Source: Endozoicomonas sp.
GTDB lineage: Bacteria; Pseudomonadota; Gammaproteobacteria; Pseudomonadales; Endozoicomonadaceae
DNA: 64,000 bases
Assembly (NCBI RefSeq): GCF_051008435.1
Contig: NZ_JBPCXO010000535.1
Span: 6,121 to 70,120 of the forward strand
Direction: 5' to 3'
Position 1 is the stretch's first letter. Each line of letters opens with the position of its first letter. This document shows positions 15,001-39,000 of this stretch, one piece after another. A program made the position numbers.

Positions 15001-18000
15001 TCTCGTGCAACCCTGAGACATTGAAGCAAAACCTGGAGAAGATCACACAGACACACAAAATCCAGCGCATTGCGCTCTTTGATCAATTTCCTTACACCCA
15101 TCACCGTGAAATGGGTGTCTTCCTAACACGCAGATAATCTCCTTCAAGACCAAAAAGTAACCAGCTACTGGCCTTTTCTTTGGAGGAATTCTATACCAGA
15201 CTGTTAGTCTCCCTGTCTCTTAAGCTGATAAAAACCGGTGACAGGGATTCTAACGGAGTCAGAATGAAAAACTATCCAGCCTTTCTCTGCGTGCTATTTG
15301 TTTCTTTCTATATAAGCATTACGAGCTCCAATGCTTTGGCTGCAAAGAACATTGACCTTCTTCTGGTCGCCTATGATCAAGGAGAGAGCAATGCCTTTAA
15401 GCAGCTTGAAAAAGCCTTGAAAAAGCAGAGTATAAACTATCGTATATTATCGATGGGGAGAGCGGCAGAAGTATTCAGGAAGCATCCTCTCAACATATCT
15501 ATATCAGTGCATAATGCAGAGCAACTACTCAATAACCGGGAAACTGCCTGGCCCAGCACTGCTCTTATTGAATTATCACAGCGTGTTAACCCCCTGATCG
15601 TCTATTCCGGAATGGCCAGTACTGCTCAGGCACAGATTCTCAACCACATGAAAACACATGGCAGCTATACATTGGCTTTTTATGACAATTTTGATCCCAT
15701 AGTGAGCAAGGAATATGTTCAGCCATTTTTAAATACTGTTAATACGCTCAATGAGTTCCATATACCCAGCATTGCAACCCGGCAGAGCTTCAATGACCTC
15801 TCGTTTTCTCCTGCACCACTCTACACCGTATCCGGACAACCCGCTCTTGAAGCCTGGGACGAAATTTACCGACAGACCGATAACCATCGTGTTCGTCTGG
15901 AATTGAGCCTTAACCCGCAAGAACCTGTTGTGGTATTTGCCGGGGGCTATGACGATACCTATGAAGACTATTTCAGAGTTTTCATAGAAGCCACTCGACA
16001 AATACCTTCGGTCACCTTTCTGGTCACTTATCACCCCAAAACCAATGGCGCGATCGAGCATCGATGGATAACAGAAAGAGGCGCAGGCAATGTCAGATTA
16101 ATGGAAAAAAGCCGTAACTCAACAGCAGTTCTCACCAAACTATCGGTCGCTGTCATGGTTCATAAATCCTCTATCGGAACGATGGCCCTATACAAAGGGA
16201 AACCGGTCATCTACATCGCTGAACCGGAGATGGATAACTTTCTGATTCGTAAAAAACTGGCCTCCCTGGCCTCTTCGCCAGAAGAAGTTGTCAGAAAATT
16301 TCAATCCGCTCTAGCAACCCATGACCAGTTCCTTTCACTGGAATCGCTTGGCATGCCCGACAAACCTTCCGAGTTTATTACTGCCGAGCTGAAGGCCATT
16401 TTGGAGGATTTAAGACAATCCAAGCCAGTTAGGCTTTCACCAGAAAGGTGATTATGGTTAACTGTTCCTGAAATCCTTATTTTGCGGAGACTTCCCAATG
16501 GGAGGCAGGCGGACCCGCCTAAAAGTTGTTACAGGGTTGTTTGCCGGAGCTGTGATAGGACTCATTTCCCTGATCGCTATCGCCAACTGGCTGGTCAATA
16601 CCAGAACCAGTTCACGGCTTTATACTGATATAGAAAACATTCCATACAATAAAGTCGGTGTTTTGCTCGGCACCAGCAAATATGCTCGGGAAGGAGGCTA
16701 TAACGATCATTATGCTCTCAGGCTCAAGGCTGCCTATCACCTTTATACACAGGGCAAGATCGAATATATCCTGATCAGTGGCGACAATGGAACACCCTAC
16801 TATGATGAGCCCAGCACCATTAGAAAAGACCTGCTGAAAATGGGTATCCCTGCTGAAAAAATTTACCGGGATTATGCTGGTTTCCGGACTCTGGACTCTA
16901 TTCTGCGGGCAAAGTTTGTTTTTGGCCTTGATGAATTCACGATTATTTCCCAGACCTACCACAATAAGCGGGCACTCTATATTGCCCAGAATAAAGACAT
17001 CAATGCTATTGCTTTCAACGCTGGTGACGGAACCAACAGCGACCTGAACAATAAAGCCAGAGAAGTTCTTGCAAGAGTTCTGGCTGTTCTGGAAGTTCAC
17101 TGGTTAAACACCGGCCCTAAATACCTGGGCCCAATGATCGATATTGGTAATACACCTCCGACATAGGCCCGGACCAGCAATGCAAGTAATCACCAACAAA
17201 AAACAGATAGGTTTACGCTTTCTGGCCTTTGGCCTGTTTTTATCCAGTACTATCAGCCTGGCCGATAAAGACAGAATCTCTGTCTCAACAGGAATGTTAC
17301 CAACGGACTATCCTCCGCTGTTCTGGATTGATGATAAAAAGGGTATTCTCCAGAAAATCCTTGAAGCTATTAGCCAACGAAGTGTCTATGACTTCAAGGA
17401 AGAGTATTACCCTTTCAACCGCATCATCTACAAGGTAGGAAATGGAAGCCTCGATCTGGAGGCCTGGACATCCCCTCTATGGCGGGAAAATATCTCGAGC
17501 AAGGTTTACTTTACCGAGCCCTTTACGGAGCACTGTGAAGTCATAGTCCAGTTAAAGGACAATGACCTTAAAGTAAATCATCCTAAAGATCTCCAGGGAA
17601 TGCGACTGGGAGTTGTCCAGAATTACACCTTCAAAACCTTTGAACCCTATTTTCAGTCAGGAGATGTCATTCGCAACAACTCCAAAGATGATATTCATGT
17701 TTTGAGGCTTTTGATGAAAGGCCGAAATAATGCAGCATTGATGAGTGAACTAGTAGCACGCTACCTGATGAAAACCCGATATCCAGAATTGTTTGTAACA
17801 GGAAAAAAGTTCGACTGCGTTCCAATCACTTTCATGTTCAGCAAGTCTACTGAGCAACAGGGAAAAGAGATCAACACCATTCTTCAGAAGTTAAAGTCAG
17901 AAGGTGTCATAGATCAGATACTGAGAGAGTACCGGTAGACGGCTACAACTCAATATTCAGAAAGGACGATTTACGTACATAACGCCTTAGCTTATCCATG

Positions 18001-36000: not shown

Positions 36001-39000
36001 GGTCCCAGACCAGAACGCCCAGGCATGTGCCATAAGCTGGAAGATAACATTCCGTTCTATACCGAAAGGACATTTGATGTTGTCCCGGGCATCACCGGAC
36101 TGGCCCAGGTTAACCTGAGCTACGATGAAACCATCGATGATGTGAGAAACAAAGTAGCCTACGATCATGCTTATGCGTTAGCGTTAAGCAGTCCAGCTGA
36201 CTGGTTGAAGATGGACTTTACTATCATGCTCAAGACCATGTGGGTCATGGTAACCGGCAAGGGGCAATAACCATCAGGTTAATGCCTCAATAATTGAGAT
36301 GGTTCGCTACCAGTATATCCAGAGCCCTTCGCATTCCTTCCCGGCTATGAGCTCCTGGCTGGAAAGGATCTGCCAGGGGCTGTTGAAGCAGTGAACACTC
36401 TATCCCTTTTGGTGCTTCTCGTTCTTCAGGCCATAGAAGCACATCTGGATAAACACCGGTCATCTCTCTCATCCAGTTCAACTTCTCGCCAATGGCCATC
36501 TGTTTGACGGCTGAAACCTCAGGACTGATGTTACCGATAAATACGGTTAAGGCATCACTTTTCTGGATAGCCTGAGCCACATCTTTCATCAACAACGCCG
36601 GCAATATACTGGTCATAAAACTACCGGGCCCCAGAATAATAAGATCAGCTTCTTCCAGAACAGCAAGGGCTTCGTGAGTTGGTTTAATGTCGGGAATCAG
36701 CATTAAACGATCAGGCTTCTGGTCCAAAGCATCTATCGTCGTCTCACCTACCACCTGCTGAGTATCAAGCATGGCTGCGAGGCTGGCAGGCTCCTCAGAC
36801 ATAGGGATTAGATCGGTTTCAACCTGAAGCATTTGCCGAATCAGGTTGATCGCATCCATGGGACGGACACACATTTGATCCATAGCCAGAAGAATCAGGT
36901 TGCCAAGATTGTGGTGTGTCAGCTCTCCGCTGTCTTCCTTGAAGCGATATTCAAAAAGAATACGCGCCAGGTTGGGACTATCGGAACAAAGCTGATTAAG
37001 GCAGTTTCTCAGATCGCCCCAGGCTATGCAGCCACTGGCTTCCCTTAACCGGCCGGTGGAACCACCATCATCAGTGGTAGCAACAATGCCAGCAAGGCGA
37101 TCTTTCATAAAGCCAAGACTGGCCATAACTCTACCAAGACCATGGCCACCACCTATGGCGGCAATACGACGACATTTAAAAAGAGCGTTGACGGATTGCA
37201 TTTATCATTGAAGGGTTGTGACTGTAATAGAAAATTATAGATGAAAGGTAGGACTAACGTCTCCACCTTTAGACAACTTTCTCCAATGGAGAACCTTTAC
37301 TACCGAAACGCCCAGGAATCAGTTCAGGTAATCTCTCTGATAAATAGGCTTTCAATCTTGCTTTACCGGACTCATCCAGCTCAATTCCCAGCTTGCTCCT
37401 ACGCCACAAAATATCTTCCATTTTGTAAGCCCACTCACTCTCAATCAGGTAGTCGACTTCAGCAGCATAAAGACCGGCACCGAAATGTTCACCAAAGTCA
37501 TTCAGAGAGCGGCTCTTACCTATCAGACGATAGCTCAGGTTTCCATAGGTACCACTGAAACGGGCAGCTATATCGGCAGGCAGCCAGGGATGAGCATTGC
37601 AGAGTTCTTCAGTACACGCCTGAACGCTCTTAAACTGCTCACTGCCTGGAAGTTGGCAGTCTTTGGTCCAGCTATTGCCCATATCAGTAAAATAAGGCTG
37701 TAGTTTACCAACAGCCGCTTCACCCAACTTACGGTAAGTAGTGAGTTTTCCCCCAAAGATTGAAAGGAGAGGCGCTTTACCACCTTCATCTTCCAGCTCC
37801 ATGGTGTAATCACGGGTAATTGCCTGAGGAGAGTCTGACTCATCTTCACAGAGTGGACGCACTCCAGAGTAATCCCAAACGACGTCTTCCAAAGAAATCT
37901 GCTTTTTGAAATGTTTGTTCACAATATCGCAAAGATAGCGTTTTTCATCTTCAGTGCAGTACACATCAGCAGGATCACCCCTGTATTCAACATCGGTTGT
38001 TCCCACCAGAGAGTATTTATCCAGGTAGGGAATGACAAAAACAATCCGGTTATCTTCATTCTGTAAAATATAAGCTCGGGGCTCCTCATGAATACGAGGA
38101 ACAACGATATGACTGCCTTTGATCAAACGGATTTTTCGGGGGGATTTTTTCTTCAGTCCATCATCGAAGAAAGATTGAACCCAGGGCCCCGCTGCATTCA
38201 CCAGAGCACGACTGCGAACGATAGACTCCTCCCCAGTGATTTCATCACGAAGGGTGATTTGCCAAACTCCTTGATCCCGCTTTGCATGCAATGCCTCGGT
38301 TCGAGTACGAACTTCCCCGCCTCTTCTCTGAAGCTCCATAGCATTCAGCACCACCAACCGGGCGTCATCGACCCAAGCATCAGAGTATTCGAAACCTTTC
38401 CTGAAGGTATTTTTCAGCGCAGAATCCTGACCAAACTTCAGAGACTTTGATCCTTGTAAAGAAACCCGGGCACTCAGGTTGTCATAGAGAAACAATCCGG
38501 CACGAATCATCCAGGCCGGTCTCAGGTGCGGCCTATGAGGCAAACAGAAACGCATGGGTGAAGCAATATGAGGGGCCATTTTCAACAGAACTTCCCGTTC
38601 TGCAAGAGCCTCCTTGACCAACCTGAATTCATAATGCTCCAGATATCTGAGACCACCATGAATCAACTTGCTGCTGGCTGATGAAGTAGCCCCTGCCAGA
38701 TCAGACTTTTCACACAGACCGACCTTGAGACCCCTGCCAGCTGCATCCACAGCAATACCTGCGCCATTGATACCCCCACCAATAACGTAGATATCAAAAA
38801 GGCCCTCTTCCTGTGCTTGTTTCATTCACTCACACCTAAAAACGAAAATTTGCGAATATTTTTAAACTATAACGAAACTTATAGTACAAAATAAACCTAT
38901 ATGTTTACTAATTCGAATAAATACGAATCTACAGGTGGTTGATAACAGAGATATGACACAAGGGGAGTAAGTGCATGAGAACTGCCCGTTCAAACTCCTG

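Follow-up and report, generated by a model that had tools for sequence, protein, structure and literature searches.

Does the polysaccharide locus on a 64,000-nucleotide stretch of an Endozoicomonas genome (contig NZ_JBPCXO010000535.1 of assembly GCF_051008435.1; the whole stretch is called the window here) belong to the symbiosis polysaccharide (syp) type known from Aliivibrio (Vibrio) fischeri, and how far does it depart from that model? The locus consists of 15 tightly packed genes in two divergent operons at window positions 17943-36270 of the open reading frame (ORF) list. Neighbouring genes abut or overlap, and the only sizeable gaps are a 459-bp divergent intergenic region and 163 nt preceding a small lipoprotein gene, termed Y. 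With a probability of about 0.85, the locus represents the Endozoicomonadaceae form of a syp/scv/rbd-type exopolysaccharide cluster, vertically inherited at a fixed chromosomal site. This reading draws on what the sequences themselves show: homologous proteins, their gene order, shared motifs and family-wide conservation.

Homology to the Syp proteins and conservation in the family

Pfam and NCBIfam searches give the minus-strand operon, read from 22640 down to 17943, as a STAS protein, a lipoprotein without a domain match, a protein with Poly_export and multiple SLBB domains, and a BY-kinase-like P-loop protein. The plus-strand operon (23100-36270) starts with a GGDEF-EAL gene, followed by genes for a GT4 glycosyltransferase, a Wzx flippase, a Wzy_C protein and a hexapeptide acetyltransferase. 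Its second half encodes a GT1 glycosyltransferase, the 166-amino-acid (aa) lipoprotein Y, a Wzz/GNVR protein, GT4 and GT2 glycosyltransferases and a Bac_transf protein (Table 1). A first-pass annotation of this DNA had proposed gene coordinates that the ORF list reproduces exactly. Its listing of the plus-strand operon holds from the GT4 gene through to the sugar phosphotransferase but omits the GGDEF-EAL gene at the head (23100-25160).

Table 1. Coordinates and supporting evidence for the features of the syp-like locus, in window positions (TM, transmembrane segments).
Feature	Position	Strand	Evidence
SypD-like BY-kinase-like P-loop protein, 235 aa	17943..18650	-	32% identity to SypD over 233/235 aa, E 6e-45
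SypC-like OPX exporter, Wza-like, 939/951 aa	18661..21516; called start 21480	-	Pfam; 49% identity over 680 aa to SypC, E 0
Degenerate SypB homologue, lipoprotein, lipobox LTGC, 288/310 aa	21473..22339, extendable to 22405	-	Profile alignment to SypB
SypA-like single-domain STAS protein, 110 aa	22308..22640	-	Pfam STAS; 40% identity to SypA over 86 aa, E 3e-17
Divergent intergenic region, 459 bp, AT-rich, presumed promoter region of both operons	22641..23099		Five-sequence alignment
HmsP-like membrane GGDEF-EAL protein, 686 aa	23100..25160	+	Pfam GGDEF and EAL; first gene of biosynthetic operon
SypH-like GT4 glycosyltransferase	25157..26272; called start 25175	+	41% over 333 aa to SypH, E 3e-91; tblastn agrees
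Wzx (MOP/PST) flippase, WzxC/TuaB-like	26277..27704	+	Pfam Polysacc_synt_3; NCBIfam NF007773, E 1e-48
SypL-like Wzy-type polymerase, O-antigen-ligase fold	27720..29219	+	Pfam Wzy_C; 46% over 422 aa to SypL, E 6e-119
SypM-like hexapeptide-repeat acetyltransferase	29164..29907; called start 29182	+	54% over 232 aa to SypM, E 3e-87
SypN-like GT1-type glycosyltransferase	29876..31075; called start 29909	+	42% over 379 aa to SypN, E 3e-106
Lipoprotein Y, 166 aa, lipobox LSGC	31239..31739	+	Signal peptide and lipobox reached from GTG start
SypO-like co-polymerase, Wzz/GNVR, two TM, without kinase domain	31723..33225	+	42% over 483 aa, E 3e-131
SypP-like GT4 glycosyltransferase	33222..34313	+	41% over 361 aa to SypP, E 1e-92
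SypQ-like membrane GT2, distantly PgaC-like	34313..35530	+	44% over 394 aa to SypQ, E 1e-108
SypR-like small phosphoglycosyl transferase	35563..36270; called start 35629	+	57% over 203 aa, E 2e-88; Pfam Bac_transf, E 4e-59

All 15 window proteins were compared by BLASTP with the 18 A. fischeri Syp proteins, and the Syp proteins were searched in the reverse direction by tblastn against the whole window. The A. fischeri reference was assembled from two pieces: sypA-sypJ from the contig carrying the SypC match, and sypC-sypR from chromosome II of strain ES114. Twelve of the 15 proteins are homologues of SypA, B, C, D, H, L, M, N, O, P, Q and R, whose relative order is retained. Eleven of these positional matches show 32-57% identity over nearly full length (E 3e-17 to 0), a similarity well past what chance would give, the SypB match being weaker (4e-6), and reverse tblastn takes each of the 12 Syp proteins back to the same window gene. 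The counterparts of the biosynthetic proteins SypH, L, M, N, O, P, Q and R are collinear with those of A. fischeri at 41-57% identity. SypE, F, G, I, J and K have no tblastn match within the window, and five of the 18 A. fischeri genes (those for SypE, F, G, I and J) are absent from the locus, all three regulators, SypE, F and G, among them.

As in the A. fischeri syp locus (sypA-sypR, 18 genes on chromosome II), the co-polymerase and its P-loop partner are separate proteins, and the OPX protein carries multiple SLBB repeats. The A. fischeri locus differs in its collinear A-D module and in its possession of SypE/F/G, SypI/J, SypK and sigma-54 promoters, none of which is found here. The window in turn adds an HmsP-like EAL gene, the Y lipoprotein and a SypC extension of ~267 aa, and has lost the core of SypB. 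The first-pass annotation had described a gene-for-gene match to the syp locus. That description stands for the 12 counterparts in order and for the homology of the STAS/B/Wza-like/ATPase quartet to SypA-D (B by profile alignment), but fails for the five missing genes, for a Wzx that is not SypK and for a B protein without an OmpA core. The three differences it listed, namely the divergent A-D module, a single glycosyltransferase in place of SypH/I/J and an extra lipoprotein between the N- and O-like genes, are all real. Its interpretation, partly supported overall, was right in essence but overstated, and missed the regulator gene.

Residue-level features of the SypA- and SypD-like proteins add to these matches. 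In A. fischeri, SypE phosphorylates SypA at S56, and SypA requires K67/R68 for activity and contacts SypE through R27 (PMC4517449). The window protein keeps the DSSG motif with the phosphorylatable serine and the K67/R68 pair (LYKRL), and R27 is not conserved. The two SypD proteins, both of 235 aa, have each lost the Walker-A lysine (GEGCST in the window, GEGVSS in A. fischeri), and both lack a C-terminal tyrosine cluster; the window SypD-like protein matches TIGR01007 and TIGR03018 below their cut-offs. The shared loss of the Walker-A lysine and the retained SypA residues lend orthology further support.

A generic Wzx/Wzy capsule or O-antigen cluster, resembling syp only through shared enzyme classes, would also contain every class of enzyme seen here, all of which are common to Wzy-dependent loci. 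It would further suit a flippase that is WzxC/TuaB-like rather than SypK-like, and a SypN-like glycosyltransferase whose best NCBIfam match is TuaH. The best matches, however, are Syp proteins and not components of capsule or O-antigen loci, as the first-pass annotation had anticipated. Eleven positional matches at 32-57% identity plus a weak SypB, with the order H-(K)-L-M-N-O-P-Q-R kept, are not what such a cluster predicts, and a STAS gene together with a Walker-A-dead SypD typifies syp rather than capsule loci. A database search with the SypC-like protein passes from Endozoicomonas relatives straight to syp-locus proteins, the next matches being SypC of Aliivibrio, Photobacterium and Vibrio (E ~1e-213); the A. 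fischeri match was verified as located in the syp locus. The group 1 capsule system Wza-Wzb-Wzc is not matched either: the locus has no Wzb phosphatase, no tyrosine-cluster Wzc and no lipoprotein Wza, and its co-polymerase and P-loop protein are separate. A capsule or O-antigen identity is extremely unlikely.

The NCBIfam models raise a second alternative, that the locus is an exosortase-associated (XrtA/PEP-CTERM) exopolysaccharide system. The best models of several window proteins do belong to the XrtA system (TIGR03007, TIGR03027, TIGR03018, TIGR03097, TIGR03088 and TIGR03013), but all but one of these matches lie under the curated cut-offs, and TIGR03027 exceeds its own through repeated SLBB units. 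A. fischeri SypC, L and O give nearly the same scores against the XrtA models; for TIGR03007, the SypO-like protein scores 208 bits and A. fischeri SypO 220 bits. Since the A. fischeri proteins score alike, the resemblance to XrtA/PEP-CTERM systems belongs to the syp family at large and reflects a distant relationship. Among the locus genes and the flanking window ORFs scanned, a set without the smaller ORFs of the 64 kb, there is no exosortase gene. An XrtA system is accordingly a very improbable identity for the locus.

The same layout is present in five other genomes: E. montiporae, E. elysicola, E. ascidiicola and, as two more remote relatives, an invertebrate-metagenome metagenome-assembled genome (MAG) and an assembly labelled 'Thalassotalea sp. 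G20_0'. In the shared family arrangement, D, C, B and A lie on the minus strand, and EAL, H, Wzx, L, M, N, Y, O, P, Q and R on the plus strand. The flanks are shared as well, with DUF218 (usually together with an SBP gene) on one side and, on the other, CofD, sometimes GlpD, and then a secretin, SctC, fused to LysM. Because the same layout and flanks recur in relatives, the inverted A-D module is, on this comparison of sequences, the ancestral arrangement of the Endozoicomonadaceae and not a rearrangement in this genome. The description of the locus in the first-pass annotation as a rearranged version is correct in that the layout differs from that of Vibrio, but the layout is standard across the family rather than peculiar to the window. 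The nearest cultured relative, E. numazuensis, shares 83% identity in the SypC-like and 92% in the SypQ-like protein; an NCBI 'MAG: Endozoicomonas sp.' contains a protein 100% identical to the flippase, exact copies of the window proteins are found on metagenome or MAG contigs only, and NCBI annotates the E. montiporae orthologue of the SypQ-like GT2 as 'putative Glycosyltransferase SypQ'.

This conservation bears on whether the locus is a recently acquired or rearranged island, obtained for example from a Vibrio together with the neighbouring type III secretion system (T3SS). In some taxa, scv loci are flanked by insertion sequences (ISs) or integrases according to a survey of such loci (Liu et al. 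2022, PMC8941931), and T3SS genes do adjoin the locus here. Six Endozoicomonadaceae genomes, with proteins diverged to 42-85% identity, nevertheless share the site, the flanks and the internal order. GC content differs little between the locus (0.41-0.48) and its flanks (0.43-0.51), identity to the Vibrio proteins is only 32-57%, and the ORFs scanned include neither an integrase nor an IS. Recent acquisition is therefore a highly unlikely history, and vertical inheritance at a fixed site is preferred.

Two loci outside the named Endozoicomonas species are of separate interest. In the G20_0 assembly (GCA_017744175.1), an Endozoicomonas-type locus has the same flanking genes as in Endozoicomonas (DUF218, a tRNA U5-methyltransferase and a xanthine permease); its SypC-like protein has a long N-terminal extension, and the genus label Thalassotalea looks wrong. 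In the alphaproteobacterium Azorhizobium doebereinerae (KI421497.1), genes for STAS, a 127-aa protein, SypC (50% identical) and a SypD-like protein of 228 aa form a module, adjoined by a divergent SypP-like GT4 gene and a fused SypQ-SypR gene. Judged from this sequence, the syp export module extends well past aquatic Gammaproteobacteria, and the A. doebereinerae arrangement indicates that rearrangement of syp modules is evidently common.

Exporter, SypB remnant and lipoprotein Y

In the SypC-like exporter, the Poly_export domain is accompanied by about six SLBB repeats and by a hydrophobic helix at the C-terminus (segment 932-950), and the signal peptide is of the non-lipoprotein type. An N-terminal extension of ~267 aa (window 20716-21516, minus strand) is not present in the 703-aa Vibrio SypC. 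It contains a weak second Poly_export-like segment followed by a K/P/E-rich linker. Total length is 844-951 aa among Endozoicomonas species, and the Photobacterium leiognathi form is longer, at 1096 aa.

The B-position gene encodes a degenerate SypB homologue. BLASTP aligns it with SypB at 32% identity over 69 aa only (E 4e-6), and HHalign of a profile of four Endozoicomonas B homologues against SypB returns a probability of 96.6% (E 6e-10) over 208 collinear columns. The N-terminal helical region is conserved, and the OmpA-like C-terminal region is left without its peptidoglycan-binding core: the segment 'HADALGEEDANQNLALERA', which carries this core in SypB, is deleted in the Endozoicomonas alignment. 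Neither Pfam nor NCBIfam yields an OmpA match for the B protein, even at E<=10, so the label 'OmpA-like lipoprotein' given to 21473-22405 in the first-pass annotation is not upheld despite the presence of the LTGC lipobox. The B gene is also the fastest-evolving of the locus, with 23-31% identity among Endozoicomonas species and protein lengths of 106-288 aa (106 aa in E. elysicola, 172 aa in E. ascidiicola). By these alignments it is best described as a decaying SypB, which would explain why Liu et al. scored ScvB as absent in Endozoicomonas (PMC8941931).

A 9-bp GC-rich hairpin followed by a T-run (22249-22271, minus strand) lies 37 nt after the sypA-like stop codon, in what is annotated as the 5' end of the B gene. 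One possibility is an attenuator within the operon that would increase the SypA:SypBCD ratio; another is that the start codon of B has been called wrongly.

Erosion of this kind might indicate that the entire locus is decaying and non-functional, with regulators, two glycosyltransferases and the SypB OmpA domain lost. The shrinking, fast-evolving B gene and the absence of five syp genes fit such a view, but each of the 15 ORFs is intact, and identity across the family stays at 45-85% for the catalytic and structural genes. The catalytic motifs of the EAL domain and the functional residues of SypA are conserved. The V. parahaemolyticus scv locus, moreover, lacks sypE, F and M and is yet functional (PMC8941931). 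General decay thus has very little probability, and the locus is better regarded as an intact syp-type cluster in which SypB has degenerated.

The Y gene ends within the start of the SypO-like co-polymerase gene, its stop overlapping that start. Its product has no Pfam or NCBIfam matches, OmpA of Pfam included. Homologues form 10 clusters among 1.84 billion representatives, and all named ones are from Endozoicomonas, Endozoicomonadaceae or Spongorhabdus; as judged from these sequences, the Y family is restricted to the Endozoicomonadaceae. A PDB sequence search with the Y profile gives a marginal match to DotD only (E 0.038).

An AlphaFold2 (AF2) model of Y built from an 11-sequence alignment has a predicted local distance difference test (pLDDT) score of 76.8 overall and >88 over residues 70-160; a single-sequence model (pLDDT 44) was discarded. 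The model predicts an OmpA-like beta-alpha-beta-alpha-beta-beta domain at residues ~67-162. The top 7 and most of the top 30 Foldseek matches are OmpA-like (FopA1, OprF, SiiA, OmpA and Pal), with E 3e-4 and probability 1.00. With the OmpA-like lipoproteins (Pal, YfiB and the C-terminal domain of OprF), Y shares a lipoprotein signal, the predicted fold and an arginine at the binding-site arginine position, whereas it has SPSS in place of the GH(T)D motif and no detectable sequence similarity. The link between Y and the SypB OmpA domain is one of predicted fold only. According to the model, the OmpA-like lipoprotein of the locus is more plausibly Y (31239-31739) than the B-position gene.

Flippase, candidate phosphodiesterase and presumed promoters

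A diverged SypK was considered as the identity of the flippase and ruled out (BLASTP E 0.085; HHalign probability 2%). The two proteins also differ in their NCBIfam profiles, the window Wzx matching WzxC/TuaB-type models and SypK matching no NCBIfam model. There are no Vibrio proteins among the 120 listed homologues of the flippase. Its best relatives beyond the Endozoicomonadaceae, among the matches listed, are ~33%-identical proteins of the 'teichuronic acid exporter' type, and the flippase of the invertebrate-metagenome MAG is 43% identical to it. Because the neighbouring genes are 41-57% identical to their Syp counterparts and the flippase is not significantly similar to its own, Wzx looks like a non-orthologous replacement in the SypK position. 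The SypN-like glycosyltransferase has no similarity to SypJ. A different repeat unit is suggested by the absence of SypI and SypJ combined with the flippase swap.

The GGDEF-EAL gene at the head of the biosynthetic operon has no Syp counterpart and sits where sypE-F-G are found in A. fischeri; it occupies the same position in all six related loci. The protein combines two TM segments, a periplasmic domain and a linker with GGDEF and EAL domains, of which the former is degenerate (GEDQF) and the latter intact. The EAL catalytic motifs are complete (EALLR, N, ExE, DDFGTGYSS, KIDKSF, EGVE and QGY), and in five of five genomes compared the EAL residues are intact and the GGDEF motif is degenerate. 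The product of 23100-25160 is thus a predicted cyclic di-GMP (c-di-GMP) phosphodiesterase, and its encoding within the operon suggests c-di-GMP as the controlling signal.

With Yersinia pestis HmsP, a member of the Hms (poly-GlcNAc) system, the window protein shares its architecture: a periplasmic loop with two TM segments, a linker, a GGDEF domain that is degenerate and an EAL domain that looks active. The linked locus contains a PgaC/HmsR-like GT2 (the SypQ-like protein). The NCBIfam HmsP model (NF008807) aligns end to end (E 2e-102), but the score of 343 bits is far below the equivalog cut-off of 733, and the protein is not an orthologue of HmsP; the NCBIfam DibA model also matches (E 7e-127). 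The Hms system is synthase-dependent, whereas the EAL gene here abuts, and is co-oriented with, Wzy-dependent biosynthetic genes.

Alignment of five Endozoicomonas intergenic regions reveals the conserved block CAGAYTAGACAA, with a TTGTCT -35-like element on the minus strand. A further conserved block, CCTATAGTTAAT, is -10-like on the plus strand. From the conserved TTGTCT and TATAGT blocks, the promoters look sigma-70-like. No sigma-54 -24/-12 element (TGGCAC-N5-TTGC-type) was found in the relevant intergenic regions of the window and five related loci, and the control scan was positive in three of four A. fischeri regions (upstream of sypA, sypI and sypP). Given this contrast between Endozoicomonas and the A. 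fischeri controls, sigma-54 control of the locus is unsupported. An Rfam scan of 17000-37500 at E<=1 for riboswitches and small RNAs returned nothing.

Proposed pathway, published record and neighbouring genes

The gene content points to a Wzx/Wzy-dependent pathway in which the SypR-like phosphoglycosyl transferase would prime undecaprenyl phosphate. The repeat unit would then be assembled by the SypM-like acetyltransferase and four glycosyltransferases (SypH-, N-, P- and Q-like); A. fischeri has six, and the unit here is accordingly probably shorter or different. The unit would be flipped across the inner membrane by a Wzx of different lineage and polymerised by the SypL-like Wzy. Chain length and export may be controlled by the SypO-like co-polymerase with its kinase-dead SypD-like partner, and the polymer would pass the outer membrane through the SypC-like multi-SLBB OPX protein. 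For regulation, an HmsP-like membrane c-di-GMP phosphodiesterase would act in place of SypG/E/F and a sigma-54 promoter. As in Vibrio, the SypA-like STAS protein probably activates at a post-transcriptional level, although here SypE is missing. Envelope anchoring may also have changed, with the OmpA domain of SypB eroded and the Y lipoprotein translationally coupled to the co-polymerase gene.

Endozoicomonas are dominant symbionts of corals, sponges, ascidians and molluscs, and form characteristic cell aggregates inside the tissues of corals and other invertebrates. In Vibrio, syp-type polysaccharides are proven colonisation factors, and A. fischeri shows Syp-dependent aggregation on squid mucus. 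By analogy, a conserved, intact syp-type locus is a reasonable candidate for a role in aggregation or persistence in host tissue. The host-associated lifestyle that the first-pass annotation had suggested from the locus and the adjacent T3SS fits the taxon, but the taxon alone already tells as much. A more elaborate proposal combines several departures into a family-specific, rewired syp system: the SypG/E/F-sigma-54 phosphorelay would have been replaced by a co-transcribed phosphodiesterase, the flippase swapped and two glycosyltransferases lost to give a different repeat unit, and the anchoring role of SypB passed to Y, and the polysaccharide could form the matrix of Endozoicomonas aggregates in coral or invertebrate tissue. 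This combined scenario is tentative and rather unlikely.

Several points weigh against the syp reading or the details built upon it. The orthology comparison covered the A. fischeri locus and this 64-kb window rather than genome-wide reciprocal best hits, and SypG-, SypE- and SypF-like regulators could be encoded elsewhere in the genome. The product, phenotype and regulation of the Endozoicomonas genes are extrapolated from Vibrio, and the promoter calls come solely from consensus matches and conservation. The OmpA-like assignment of Y relies on a predicted model, with Foldseek E ~3e-4 and a target TM score of ~0.6, and the canonical aspartate of the peptidoglycan-binding site is not conserved in Y. 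Y as a relocated OmpA domain of SypB was tried by HHalign and rejected, the alignments of Y profiles with SypB (2%) and with the B-gene profile not being significant. Table S4 of the survey gives ScvO (SypR) as absent in seven of seven Endozoicomonas, as opposed to the 57%-identical homologue here (PMC8941931). In the window, as in all related genomes examined, a SypR homologue closes the locus at its 3' end.

The presence of syp/scv in Endozoicomonas is already published, and the locus adds a genome, not a new system. Liu et al. surveyed syp/scv homologues in 148 species of 28 genera and described the loci as structurally divergent (PMC8941931). Their Table S4 lists E. acroporae, E. arenosclerae, E. 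ascidiicola, E. atrinae, E. elysicola, E. montiporae and E. numazuensis as scv-positive, all seven scored without ScvB, ScvE (corresponding to SypG) and ScvG (SypI); the mapping of scv to syp names, including that of ScvO, was inferred here from gene order. In the same source, ScvE is absent in Endozoicomonas and in several Photobacterium species, so the sigma-54 activator appears to vary within the syp/scv family. The V. parahaemolyticus scv locus is, like the present one, arranged in two operons with scvABCD separate and without sypE and sypF, but is governed by the sigma-54-dependent regulator ScvE, absent here, and lacks SypM, present here (PMC8941931).

Full-text searches of the literature turned up no other paper linking Endozoicomonas with syp. 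PMC8941931 gives no description of the EAL gene, of the flippase replacement, of the degenerate SypB or of the Y lipoprotein, and none was found in the searchable literature. Possibly worth specialist attention are the predicted phosphodiesterase in place of the sigma-54 phosphorelay, the flippase swap with two fewer glycosyltransferases, and the eroded SypB with Y. These family-specific differences offer testable handles on adaptation to an intracellular or tissue-associated lifestyle.

The T3SS genes of the window are split among 38990-41155 (minus), 42154-44241 (plus) and 60659-62786 (minus). The SctC secretin, with its N-terminal LysM, and SctV (FHIPEP) lie just beyond CofD/GlpD, beside the syp-like locus, and the adjacency of LysM-SctC to the locus is kept in E. 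ascidiicola and the invertebrate-metagenome MAG. SctL, SctK and SctJ follow ~16 kb on, behind genes for a radical SAM protein, DUF1631, an adenosine deaminase, a flavoprotein and a Trp/Tyr permease.

On the opposite side, a 423-aa ORF (15180-16451, plus strand) has no Pfam or NCBIfam matches, and a counterpart of ~390 aa lies upstream of DUF218 in all Endozoicomonas loci examined. Farther out, a 460-aa protein (8772-10154, minus strand) contains ricin-type beta-trefoil lectin domains and could be a carbohydrate-binding factor relevant to host interaction.

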